A stretch of DNA of 64,000 nt from Escherichia coli (GTDB lineage: Bacteria > Pseudomonadota > Gammaproteobacteria > Enterobacterales > Enterobacteriaceae). This document shows, in pieces, positions 22,124 to 37,408 of the stretch; within the stretch, counting starts at the first letter, position 1; every line of letters begins with the position of its first letter. Under the pieces are notes generated by a model. It was not told where the DNA came from, did not search any database, and saw nothing but the letters and a program-made list of their open reading frames with translations. The stretch lies in NCBI RefSeq assembly GCF_003018255.1, contig NZ_CP027440.1; one strand, 5' to 3'. Both the position numbers and the translations under genes were made by a program.

Positions 22124-22459
22124 TTAACTTTTGGTCATTTCACAAAGCGTATAATTTAATAAGCGTCCTAAACCACTGACGGTTTGTGATAACGCTTCTT
22201 CTACTGCGCCCACCGAACCATAAATCACCAGCGCGCCGCTAAAACGGTCGAGAAAACCGATATGCACATCGGCGGCTTTCAAAGCTAAATCACCGGCGAT
22301 CATCGCCGTTTCTCCGGGAGTTAGCGTCATAATGCCAATTGCGCCCGCATCCGGAACGCCGATTTTCTTCGCCAGTTCCTCGCCGGGATGCGCGATGAGA
22401 TGCGCCAGCGTGACCTGTTTGCCGGGCACAAATTCCTGAATGATGCGTTCTTTATCCAT
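22124..22459 (-). CDS. eutS: microcompartment shell protein EutS (permuted BMC domain)
   Basis: ORF 22124..22531; start taken at internal Met ([16 protein letters not shown], 111 aa); first gene of operon. Confidence 0.88.
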
Positions 22460-22560
22460 GAGTCGCCGCCTGTGAAAAACTTTCGTGTATCGTGACAATT
22501 TTTCGTCAGAGTAAATAACAAAATTCGGCAAGCGCGTTTAAAAGGTGAGGTAGATCACTA
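22460..22560 (-). promoter_or_regulatory. eut operon upstream promoter region (expected EutR-dependent promoter)
   Basis: Position immediately upstream of first operon gene eutS; no motif confirmed. Confidence 0.4.
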
Positions 22561-22707
22561 AGAATGGAGAGATATTTACTGTTATGAATAAACTTTCATA
22601 TGCGACGCATGAATATAAATAAAATAATATCGAGATATTTTATATACTGATTTTTTTATTATTCGTAAACTCAGTAATAAGCTTTACTAATATATTGCAG
22701 CTAAACT

Positions 22708-22733
22708 GCTTACCCTGAATATTCAGGGTAAGC
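22708..22733. other. 26-bp perfect palindrome (gcttaccctgaat|attcagggtaagc) in the AT-rich maeB-eutS spacer; hairpin or operator candidate
   Basis: Perfect dyad symmetry; lies about 20 nt past maeB stop on its transcribed strand, no canonical downstream U-tract. Confidence 0.5.
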
Positions 22734-22751
22734 GTGAGAGTTAAAAAAAAA

Positions 22752-25031
22752 TTACAGCGGTTGGGTTTGCGCTTCAACCACGGCCAGCGCCACCATATTG
22801 ACGATACGACGTACCGATGCGATCGGCGTTAACACGTGAACCGGTTTCGCCACACCCATCAGCACCGGACCGACAGTCACGCCTTCCGAGCTGGAAACGC
22901 GCAGTAAGTTGTAACTAATGCGGGCAGCTTCCATGTTCGGCATCACCAGAATATTAGCGGAACCTTTCAAAGGGCTGTCCGGCATACGGTCATTCCGAAT
23001 CGCTTCCACCAGCGCTGCATCGCCGTGCATTTCACCATCAATCATCAGTTCTGGTGCACGTTCCCTGACCAGTTCCAGCGCCTGACGCATTTTGCTCGAC
23101 GACGGGCAGTCAGAAGAACCAAAGTTGGAGTGCGACAACAGAGCCACACGCGGCTCAATACCAAAACGACGAACAGTTTCTGCCGCCATCAAGGTGATCT
23201 CCGCCAGCTCTTCTGCATCAGGCTCATCATTGACGTAGGTATCGGCAATAAAGGTGTTACCACTCGGCAACAGCAGCGCGTTCATTGCACCTGCGGTGTG
23301 AACGCCATCGCGATAACCAAAGACATTTTTCACCACGCTAAAGTGTTCATGATAATCGCCCACCGTACCGCAAATCATTGCATCGGCTTCGCCACGCTGA
23401 ACCATGATCGCGCCGATCACTGTCGGGTTACTGATCAGCGCACGCTGCGCCTGCTCCTGAGTGACACCGCGACGCTTCATGATCTGGAAGTATTCGGTCC
23501 AGTACTCTTTAAAGCGCGGATCGGATTCGTTATTGACGATCTCAAAATCAACGCCCGCCTTGATCTGCAAGCCCAGTTTCTGAATGCGCATTTCGATCAC
23601 GTTCGGACGACCAATAAGGATCGGTTTCGCCAGTCCCAGCGTTACCAGTTCCTGAGTGGCATGCAGAACGCGCGCCTCTTCCCCTTCCGGCAGAACTACG
23701 CGCTTCGGCGCTTTGCGAGCCTGGGAGAAAATCGGCTTCATAAACAGGTTAGTTTTGTAAACGAACTCCGTCAGCTTGTCGATGTAGACGTCGAAATCAG
23801 CAATCGGACGCGTCGCCACGCCCGACTCCATCGCCGCTTTCGCCACCGCAGGAGCGATCTTAACGATCAAGCGCGGATCAAACGGTTTTGGAATGATGTA
23901 TTCCGGACCAAAGCTCAGATCCTGATCGCCATACGCTGAAGCCACCACTTCACTCTGTTCCGCATGGGCCAGTTCTGCAATCGCGCGTACCGCCGCCAGT
24001 TTCATCTCTTCGTTGATGGCGGTTGCGCCAACGTCCAGCGCGCCACGGAAGATAAACGGGAAGCAAAGGACGTTGTTCACCTGGTTCGGGTAGTCGGAAC
24101 GGCCGGTACAGATGATGGCATCCGGACGCACTTCTTTCGCCAGCGGCGGCAGAATTTCCGGTTCCGGGTTCGCCAGCGCCAGGATCATTGGCGCACGGGC
24201 CATTTTCTTCACCATTTCCTGGGTCAGCACTTTCGGGCCGGAACAGCCGAGGAAAATATCCGCGCCTTCAATCACATCATCGAGGGTACGTTTACCGTCA
24301 TCCACCACCGCGTATGCGGCTTTGGTTTCCGCCATGTTTGGCTCACGGCCCCGATAGATAACGCCTTTTGAATCGCAAACCACGATGTTATGTTTTTGCA
24401 GACCCAGCGCTACCAGCAGGTTCATACAGGCGATTGCTGCGGCACCCGCGCCAGAAACCACCATCCGCACGTCGGAGATGTTTTTCTCCACCACGCGCAA
24501 ACCGTTGAGGATGGCGGCAGTGCTGATAATTGCCGTGCCGTGCTGATCGTCGTGGAATACCGGAATATTCATCCGCTCGCGCAGTTTCTGTTCAATATAG
24601 AAACATTCTGGCGCTTTAATGTCTTCGAGGTTGATGCCGCCAAAGGTCGGTTCGAGCGCAGCGACGACTTCAATAAATTTGTCCGGGTCGAGTTCATCAA
24701 CTTCTATGTCAAATACATCAATCCCGGCGAATTTCTTAAACAGAACGCCCTTGCCTTCCATCACCGGTTTGCCTGCCAGCGCGCCAATGTTGCCTAACCC
24801 CAGCACCGCCGTACCGTTAGAGATCACCGCTACCAGGTTACCGCGCGCGGTATATTTGTAGGCTTTTAACGGGTCTTTTTCGATTTCAAGACAAGGTGCG
24901 GCAACGCCTGGTGAGTAGGCCAGCGCCAGATCGCGCTGCGTTGCCAGAGGCTTGGTTGGAGAAACCTGGATTTTCCCTGGAACTGGAAATTCATGGAAAT
25001 CAAGTGCACTTTGTTTTAACTGGTCATCCAT
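22752..25031 (-). CDS. maeB: NADP-dependent malic enzyme (malic enzyme domain fused to PTA-like domain)
   Basis: 759-aa ORF; N-terminus [23 protein letters not shown]. Confidence 0.94.
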
Positions 25032-37374: not shown

Positions 37375-37408
37375 TAAAAAAGGCGACATGCTAATGTGTC
37401 GCCTTTTT
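37375..37408. terminator. bidirectional intrinsic terminator (acrD / ypfM)
   Basis: Stem ggcgaca...tgtcgcc flanked by A-run and T-run (aaaaaggcgacatgctaatgtgtcgccttttt). Confidence 0.7.

Follow-up and report, generated by a model that had tools for sequence, protein, structure and literature searches.

The 26-bp palindrome GCTTACCCTGAATATTCAGGGTAAGC between maeB and eutS in E. coli most probably forms the stem-loop of the maeB terminator or 3' end, acting as RNA on the minus strand and not as double-stranded DNA. Comparison of sequences across genomes leads us to assign this reading a probability of about 0.8. The initial annotation had offered an atypical maeB terminator and an insulator between maeB and the eut promoter as possible roles, which are effectively one idea. 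That idea gained support from several directions: other genera share the offset of the hairpin from the maeB stop, sister Escherichia lineages have a T-run after it, G·U changes in the stem appear on the sense strand only, and the hairpin stays with maeB across a genomic island.

The palindrome was confirmed as real and far above chance. It is present at 22708-22733, as first described, with two arms of 13 nt each that are 100% complementary and have 0 nt between them. Within the window, the 64-kb stretch of DNA that was analysed, it is the only perfect palindrome with no spacer and with arms longer than 8 nt. The longest palindrome in 200 shuffled windows had arms of 11 nt, arms of 13 nt were seen in 0/200, and the analytic expectation for a palindrome with 13-nt arms is about 1e-3 per 64-kb window. 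The spacer around it is larger than the roughly 190 bp first given, as the maeB-eutS intergenic region covers 292 bp (22460-22751). The very high AT content attributed to this spacer was found for about 22561-22700 (22-29% GC) and not for the rest. RefSeq shows maeB and eutS flanking the spacer in tandem with nothing annotated between them. The 290-bp spacer is 100% identical to that of NZ_AP025214.2 and is present in 5408/5426 complete E. coli genomes. The hairpin is the sole candidate terminator between the two genes (Table 1).

Table 1. Features of the maeB-eutS region, listed by position in the window.
Feature	Position	Strand	Basis
eutS, first gene of the eut operon	22124..22459	-	ORF list, RefSeq, orthologous loci
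Conserved eut P1 promoter and leader block, up to the eutS ATG (22457-22459)	22460..22543	-	Sequence conservation
CRP-like site AGTGATCTACCTCACC (putative)	22544..22559	-	Direct reading; upstream edge of the conserved eut promoter block
AT-rich spacer, Escherichia-specific (22-29% GC)	22561..22696	-	Missing from the 153-160-bp spacers of Citrobacter, Klebsiella and Yokenella
Tail AGUUUAGCUGC, degenerate U-tract	22697..22707	-	4 U in the best 8-nt window; TransTermHP-style tail score -2.27
Palindrome, probable stem-loop of the maeB terminator or 3' end	22708..22733	-	Folding, conservation, shared offset
Stop-to-hairpin linker, 18 nt, UUUUUUUUUAACUCUCAC	22734..22751	-	Sequence; orthologue comparison
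maeB CDS (NADP-dependent malic enzyme, 759 aa); stop codon TAA at 22752-22754	22752..25031	-	ORF list; RefSeq annotation of NZ_AP025214.2

Read as RNA on the maeB strand, the palindrome gives an 11-bp stem with 6 G-C pairs and an AUAU loop, with a predicted dG of about -18 kcal/mol. The hairpin starts 18 nt past the TAA stop of maeB, and folding of the 81-nt region gave -23.8 kcal/mol (z = -4.3 versus shuffles). A stable, G+C-containing stem-loop soon after the stop codon on the sense strand is a feature of intrinsic terminators, and the palindrome has it. A U-rich tract of about 5 or more U in 8 nt is another such feature, and here the palindrome fails: the hairpin is followed on the maeB strand by AGTTTAGCTGC with no T-run, and the tail AGUUUAGC contains 4 U in its best 8-nt window. 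A consensus terminator scan of the window made no call at the palindrome, since T accounts for just 4 of the 8 bases in the best stretch after it. Since it lacks the U-tract, the window's palindrome is classed as a derivative of an intrinsic terminator and not as a canonical one. The earlier wording, "not a textbook intrinsic terminator", is thus correct for E. coli. The T-run was also rightly placed before and not after the hairpin on the maeB strand: the linker reads T9-AACTCTCAC, with the T9 run at 22743-22751 between the stop codon and the hairpin. This upstream run, which had prompted the wording, is a polymorphic homopolymer outside the element, reading TTCTTTTTT in most sampled E. coli and T7, T8 or T9 in others. 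The linker as a whole is homologous to TTTCACTTTAATTAATTC in Citrobacter and Klebsiella, and the two align. A bidirectional terminator was considered and rejected, because the maeB strand has a T-run rather than an A-run ahead of the hairpin and GUGAGAGUUAAAAAAAAA follows on the plus strand. It is also disfavoured by gene order, as such elements usually lie between convergent genes and maeB and eutS are in tandem.

The hairpin is strongly conserved within E. coli. Using a 36-nt query (the hairpin with 5-nt flanks), matches with at most one mismatch were found in at least 5397 of 5409 E. coli genomes, and the one-mismatch class comprised 4197 genomes. This class fits a variant with G after the hairpin; in every variant genome that was read, the mismatch was the first base past the stem. 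That base is A in the window and in K-12-like genomes and G in every other sampled E. coli genome, and the G extends the palindrome to 28 bp in most sampled E. coli genomes. The query returned a median of two "places" per genome, which we infer to be the self-complementary query matching both strands of one site. Across the 5409 genomes the palindrome occupies one locus per genome, with no second site at BLAST sensitivity.

Among 12 distinct E. coli intergenic sequences, 0/26 hairpin sites were variable, compared with 25/159 sites in the adjacent non-promoter spacer (p = 0.017). When the divergent L005 was added, the figures were 0/26 for the hairpin and 34/102 for the spacer (p = 1e-4). The most variable patch is the tail of 7-8 nt after the stem, which reads AGTTTAG, GGTTTAG, GGTTTGG, GATTTAG or, in one genome, GGTCCAG; this variation is somewhat over-sampled, since two variant sequences were chosen by a query that contained the tail. 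The combination of an invariant stem and a variable tail suggests that selection holds the stem, and apparently not a U-tract, in E. coli. Because the tail is the most variable patch and even includes GGTCCAG, classical intrinsic termination is unlikely to be efficient or selected in E. coli.

An eroded U-tract and a freely variable tail would also be expected of a decaying relic, that is, the hairpin of a former terminator with no present function in E. coli, kept by recent common descent; the invariance of the stem has limited weight here because all E. coli are closely related. However, a relic does not readily account for a stem with 0/26 variable sites amid spacer of which 16-33% of sites vary, nor for a hairpin retained in deeper Escherichia lineages with only pairing-compatible changes, and we regard it as quite unlikely.

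These deeper lineages include SCPM-O-B-8794, E. whittamii and MOD1-EC7003, which have kept the hairpin with pairing-compatible changes only, between strongly diverged flanks. The hairpin and tail are GCTTACCCTGAGTAATTCGGGGTAAGC and GATTTTTAT in E. whittamii, GCTTACTCTGGATTATTCGGGGTAAGC and GGTTTTATTG in Escherichia sp. MOD1-EC7003, and GCTTACCCTGTTTATTCGGGGTAAGC and GGTTTTGCTG in the SCU-172 type of E. coli; E. coli ST2747 has the canonical hairpin with the tail GGTTTTCC. The tails of all four carry GATTTTT or GGTTTTA/G/C and have 5 or more T in 8 nt. Three kinds of stem substitution were found, each of which makes a G·U pair on the maeB sense strand and an A·C mismatch on the opposite strand. 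Sense and antisense hairpins differ in dG (-13.9 vs -5.1, -17.2 vs -13.2 and -16.2 vs -11.7 kcal/mol), and 97.9% of cells in the Escherichia alignment pair on the sense strand. This strand bias is suggestive of an RNA role on the maeB strand (about p = 0.1); it is not decisive, because there were only 3-4 independent events, the Escherichia stem showing 3 one-sided G·U changes and 0 double compensatory changes. The exact E. whittamii and MOD1-EC7003 hairpin variants had no match in complete E. coli genomes, and an exact EutS protein search for further Escherichia returned ten places, all of them E. coli-like. The lineage sample contained no named genomes of E. albertii, E. fergusonii, E. marmotae or E. 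ruysiae.

The loop varies in these lineages (AUAU, GUAAU, UUA and UUUAUU, with lengths of 4, 5 or 3, 3, and 6 nt), while the stem is kept. Since both the length and the sequence of the loop vary, pairing alone is conserved, and not the perfect dyad seen in E. coli DNA. The dyad arises incidentally, because the stem is fully paired and its loop, AUAU, is by coincidence self-complementary.

The same slot was compared in other genera by reading the DNA past the stop codon in 80 loci with relatives of the MaeB C-terminus. A hairpin with a T-run was found 14-20 nt past the maeB stop in 25 loci from Citrobacter, Klebsiella, Salmonella, Yokenella, Pseudocitrobacter and Pluralibacter. Such a textbook terminator is present in all loci of Citrobacter, the Klebsiella oxytoca group, Yokenella and Pseudocitrobacter in which eutS follows at 153-160 bp; it also occurs in Salmonella, Klebsiella indica and a Pluralibacter MAG, where maeB is not next to eutS. 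The sequence of these terminators is GGCGCGGG-loop-CCCGCGCC/T-TTTTTAT, with a dG of -14 to -21 kcal/mol and 6-7 T in 8 nt. Their offset from the stop codon is 17-20 nt except in Yokenella, compared with 18 for the E. coli hairpin. When 21 of the other-genus terminators were aligned, 100% of cells paired, and two pairs showed compensatory double changes, from G-C to A-U in Salmonella and in Pseudocitrobacter. Structure has thus been kept by pairing, as expected of an intrinsic terminator, both in Escherichia (97.9% paired) and in the other genera (100%).

The terminators of Citrobacter, Klebsiella and Salmonella resemble the E. coli hairpin in lying in the same slot, after a homologous T/A-rich linker and ahead of the same conserved eut block, and in the stable stem-loop that the maeB sense strand forms. 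In contrast, the E. coli stem is unrelated in sequence and longer, with 11-13 bp and 55% GC, whereas the stems elsewhere have 8-9 bp, nearly all of them GC. The U-tract also differs, being AGUUUAG in the window, unconserved within E. coli, and TTTTTAT in Citrobacter, Klebsiella and Salmonella. The locus offers a clear example of a terminator that holds its position across Enterobacteriaceae even though the hairpin sequence is exchanged and, in E. coli, the U-tract is eroding.

Insertions reveal to which of the two neighbouring genes the hairpin is tied. In a few E. coli genomes (e.g., SCU-172) and in three metagenome contigs, maeB and eutS are separated by a 1.8-kb insert, which encodes a convergent family-4 glycosyltransferase. 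The hairpin and tail in these loci still lie 18 nt past the maeB stop, and the promoter-proximal 180 nt stay with eutS. The SCU-172-type island replaces the first 78 nt of the AT-rich spacer past the tail (~22619-22696), and its breakpoint is therefore past the tail and not at the hairpin. Because the hairpin stays with maeB across the insert, it belongs to maeB and not to the eut promoter.

The eut promoter block itself is nearly invariant in Escherichia and has about 81% identity to Salmonella and Intestinirhabdus over ~120 nt. The CRP-like sequence at its upstream edge, AGTGATCTACCTCACC, is kept in Citrobacter, Klebsiella, Yokenella and Escherichia; we take it to be a putative CRP site on the basis of the consensus TGTGA-N6-TCACA. 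A sigma-54 promoter around the tail was checked by eye and rejected, as the GG/GC spacing does not fit. For the spacer as a whole, the protein-binding data that we found consist of one RpoS-RNA polymerase genomic SELEX peak, which is not resolved to the palindrome (PMC5493296). A review (PMC5821096) reports an EutR footprint immediately ahead of the -35 of eut P1, and we place the EutR site in the conserved eut block, ~150 bp or more from the palindrome.

The initial annotation had also proposed that the palindrome is the operator of a dimeric DNA-binding regulator, which would act on the eut promoter or on maeB. Dyad-symmetric DNA is certainly present: the dyad spans 26 bp, or 28 bp in most of the E. 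coli genomes sampled, with perfect symmetry and does not vary within the species. Its centre, CTGAAT|ATTCAG, resembles what we take to be LacI-family half-sites, such as the Cra box GCTGAATCGATTCAGC, a resemblance that provides a lead and not a test. However, neither the half-site nor the spacing is conserved, since the relatives break the dyad: its length goes from 26 to 27 nt, its centres read GAGTAATTC, GGATTATTC and GTTTATTC, and the SCU-172 type no longer has a TGAAT core. The one-strand G·U-compatible changes (C/T, A/G) make the DNA half-sites unequal in three lineages. The position is equally unfavourable, as the palindrome is separated by ~150 bp or more from the conserved eut promoter block downstream of it, stays with maeB across the 1.8-kb island, and is at a distance from the EutR footprint, which is reported at the -35 of P1 instead (PMC5821096). 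Further sites are lacking as well. The palindrome is single-copy in the 5409 E. coli genomes, which leaves no sites for a regulon, and the search for other half-site copies that had been suggested gave only a chance-level result in the window, where the one other exact half-site lies inside the eutG CDS and has no partner. The operator proposal did not hold up against these observations, in which dyad, centre and arm spacing are not kept in relatives and no other copy occurs in E. coli genomes, and we consider it very unlikely.

A Cra/LacI-type operator was rejected specifically. Like the LacI-family boxes, including that of Cra, the palindrome is a perfect dyad with a TGAAT/ATTCA motif. The Cra box presumably has a central CG that is missing from the palindrome, making the half-site spacing 2 bp too short, and TGAAT is lost in a natural variant. 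The palindrome thus differs from LacI-family operators in its spacing, in having no conserved dyad or motif in relatives and no further copies, and in not lying at a promoter.

Read at the DNA level, the palindrome might instead belong to a repeated extragenic palindrome family, mark where a mobile element ends, or serve as a cruciform or recombination site. In favour are its perfect symmetry, its setting in AT-rich DNA within an insertion hotspot, and two independent IS1 insertions found at it or no more than 13 nt from it. IS1 favours AT-rich targets, which would account for these insertions. Arguing against a DNA-level element, the palindrome is single-copy in every E. coli genome, the breakpoint of the island lies past the tail and not at the hairpin, and a viral contig collection gave 0 matches. 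A relaxed pattern that left out the canonical form had 22 matches in a metagenome scan, of which 3 were the SCU-172-type maeB locus and the rest were unrelated sequences; no new Escherichia hairpin variants were among the 22. An element of this kind seems exceedingly unlikely. REP/BIME or MITE sequences were rejected because they need many dispersed copies, and the palindrome has one locus per genome. It shares with REP/BIME an intergenic position at the 3' end of a gene and the potential to stabilise the upstream mRNA, but it differs in its single copy, its higher AT content and the absence of a REP consensus. Repeated CCCTCTCCC...GGGAGAGGG units do occur past maeB in several loci of Enterobacter, Leclercia and Lelliottia.

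For the stem-loop of the maeB terminator or 3' end, we propose the following scheme. RNA polymerase passing the maeB stop would transcribe the 18-nt linker and then GCUUACCCUGA-AUAU-UCAGGGUAAGC, and the nascent RNA would fold into an 11-12-bp hairpin of about -18 kcal/mol that sets the maeB 3' end. In the Escherichia ancestor, a U-run after the hairpin would have made it an ordinary Rho-independent terminator, the positional equivalent of GGCGCGGG...CCCGCGCC-TTTTTAT in Citrobacter, Klebsiella and Salmonella. This U-run persists in E. whittamii, MOD1-EC7003 and some E. coli lineages, and has decayed to A/G-G-UUU-A/G-G in nearly all E. coli, including the window. Given this decay, release driven by the hairpin is probably only partial. 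Weak, partial intrinsic termination with the GUUUAG tail is therefore one route to the 3' end, to which we tentatively give slightly less than even odds. In another route, Rho would halt read-through polymerases within the untranslated spacer of 290 nt, which is C-rich and G-poor 80-200 nt on, and 3'-5' exonucleases would trim the RNA back to the hairpin, which would shield the 3' end of the maeB mRNA. Such Rho-assisted termination with trimming to a protective hairpin is possible, though we hold it with some doubt. Either route would yield a defined, stable maeB 3' end and would insulate the eut promoter, which is EutR-dependent and, we assume, also CRP-dependent, from maeB transcription. MaeB abundance does not track eut induction in proteomics (PMC11334477), which is consistent with separate regulation.

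Position, structure, pattern of conservation and strand bias of the hairpin were observed, whereas termination at it, its efficiency and any role of Rho are what we infer. The U-less case has a counterpart in a described class of E. coli 3' ends. In E. coli, Rho-dependent transcripts are reported to end precisely past stable stem-loops of reduced U content; these shield the RNA from 3'-5' exonucleases and are followed by a mild enrichment of C over G downstream (Dar & Sorek 2018, PMC6061677). The maeB hairpin resembles these U-less protective stem-loops in having no U-rich sequence after it and no A-tract before it, in lying directly past the gene, and in its terminator-like stem and loop size; C exceeds G as well, but only further downstream. 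The C/G ratio past the hairpin is 0.8-1.1 in the first 80 nt, which are AT-rich, and 1.6-2.4 from 80 to 200 nt. The fit to the class is only partial, however: the excess of C over G starts ~80 nt downstream and not immediately adjacent, as it does for rut sites, and the hairpin shows clear descent from an intrinsic terminator, with Rho dependence and trimming here being only presumed. The window's copy probably works like the U-less protective stem-loops (PMC6061677), as a derivative of an intrinsic terminator.

A stem under selection beside a tail that is not, in the only candidate terminator between maeB and eutS, could also point to a regulatory element of the 3'-UTR, namely a leaky or conditional terminator that couples maeB to eut, a hairpin to which an RNA chaperone (e.g., ProQ) binds, or the end of an sRNA derived from the 3'-UTR. 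If the terminator were leaky, maeB transcription under acetate or gluconeogenic conditions would prime the eut operon. Against such an element, comparison with Rfam families gave no match (best 25.8 bits against a gathering threshold of 49, E = 0.81), and maeB was not linked to ProQ or a small RNA in the literature searched. The weak U-tail argues against Hfq binding, and the 18 nt before the hairpin are too short for the seed region of an sRNA. We judge a regulatory 3'-UTR element highly improbable. Taken more broadly, it is unlikely that the hairpin has been kept for some role other than classical termination, be it as a leaky or conditional terminator, a ProQ-type RNA-binding site or the site of a DNA-binding dimer. 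The literature searched held nothing relevant on maeB with terminator, transcription unit or ProQ, and the palindrome sequence was not found printed in the text searched. Likewise, no maeB/eutS entry was found in the searchable supplements of Term-seq, 3'-end and terminator-prediction studies.

As the stem-loop of the maeB terminator or 3' end, the palindrome would give the likely 3' boundary of the maeB transcription unit and an insulator before the ethanolamine-utilisation operon. Its significance beyond annotation is slight, and it would be an ordinary 3'-end or terminator hairpin with one small twist. The natural tails GGTCCAG, GGTTTAG, GGTTTTC and GATTTTT form a convenient test of whether a strong hairpin can terminate with GUUUAG or Rho takes over. 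Possible read-through from maeB should be expected when the eut microcompartment operon is engineered in E. coli. As a separate observation, insertions recur in the maeB-eutS region: some E. coli carry the GT4 island, and Salmonella has an insert of 2.1 kb.

The T-run that the initial annotation had noticed beside the maeB hairpin is a slippage-prone tract. Its length after the maeB stop codon varies within E. coli, with TTCTTTTTT present in most of the sampled genomes and T7, T8 or T9 in the rest. Elsewhere in the window, several perfect-stem hairpins have the A-run/stem/T-run form that is typical of bidirectional terminators, and the maeB hairpin contrasts with them. Several loci of Enterobacter, Leclercia, Lelliottia and their relatives (L032, L033, L045, L048, L051, L061, L065, L073, L079 and L080) have no simple terminator in the first 100 nt after maeB; what is found there is a palindromic unit, ACCCTAACCCTCTCCC...GGGGAGAGGG, in repeated form, which appears to belong to a dispersed repeat family.

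Features of the maeB-eutS region and of the loci compared with it
Feature	Location	Remarks
T9 homopolymer	window 22743-22751	maeB strand; directly 3' of the maeB stop
Escherichia-specific AT-rich segment	window 22561-22696	22-29% GC; separates the hairpin from the CRP-like site
CRP-like site AGTGATCTACCTCACC	window 22544-22559	conserved across Escherichia, Citrobacter, Klebsiella and Salmonella
Promoter and leader block up to eutS	window 22460-22543	conserved in the same four genera as the CRP-like site
Perfect-stem hairpins of A-run/stem/T-run form, e.g., AAAAAGGCGACATGCTAATGTGTCGCCTTTTT	window 37377-37408, 53034-58, 63733-60	
1.8-kb insert, maeB-eutS	L101 8992-11027	E. coli SCU-172; also in L112, L114 and L118
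2.1-kb stretch, maeB-eutS	L036 3754-5865	Salmonella enterica subsp. diarizonae

Citrobacter, Klebsiella and Yokenella have a maeB-eutS spacer of 153-160 bp, compared with 236-292 bp in Escherichia. A genomic SELEX peak of RpoS-RNA polymerase has been published for the spacer (PMC5493296). The divergent E. coli lineage represented by SCPM-O-B-8794 lacks about 55 nt of the AT-rich segment, aligned to window positions ~22565-22620, and retains the canonical hairpin, with GGTTAAG as its tail. No promoter was called by a simple sigma-70 scan within the conserved block before eutS (window 22460-22559), which is what an activator-dependent promoter would be expected to give.

Two independent IS1 insertions were found at or close to the hairpin, in NZ_CP136018.1 and NZ_CM136153.1, at about window positions 22695 and 22708. 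The element lies 13 nt past the hairpin in one case and replaces the last hairpin base in the other. In NZ_CP136018.1, the IS1 insertion is accompanied by the absence of eutS through part of eutE.

Larger inserts between maeB and eutS were found in other genomes. The 1.8-kb insert encodes a convergent family-4 glycosyltransferase gene, and E. coli SCU-172 carries an additional IS1 between eutS and eutP. The PGAP annotation of the SCU-172 locus also includes a probably spurious hypothetical protein of 69 aa that runs antisense over the hairpin. The 2.1-kb stretch in S. enterica subsp. diarizonae contains a convergent 413-aa ORF with a CNLNCAYC motif (radical-SAM-like), and the canonical maeB terminator is retained at offset 19 despite the 2.1 kb before eutS.
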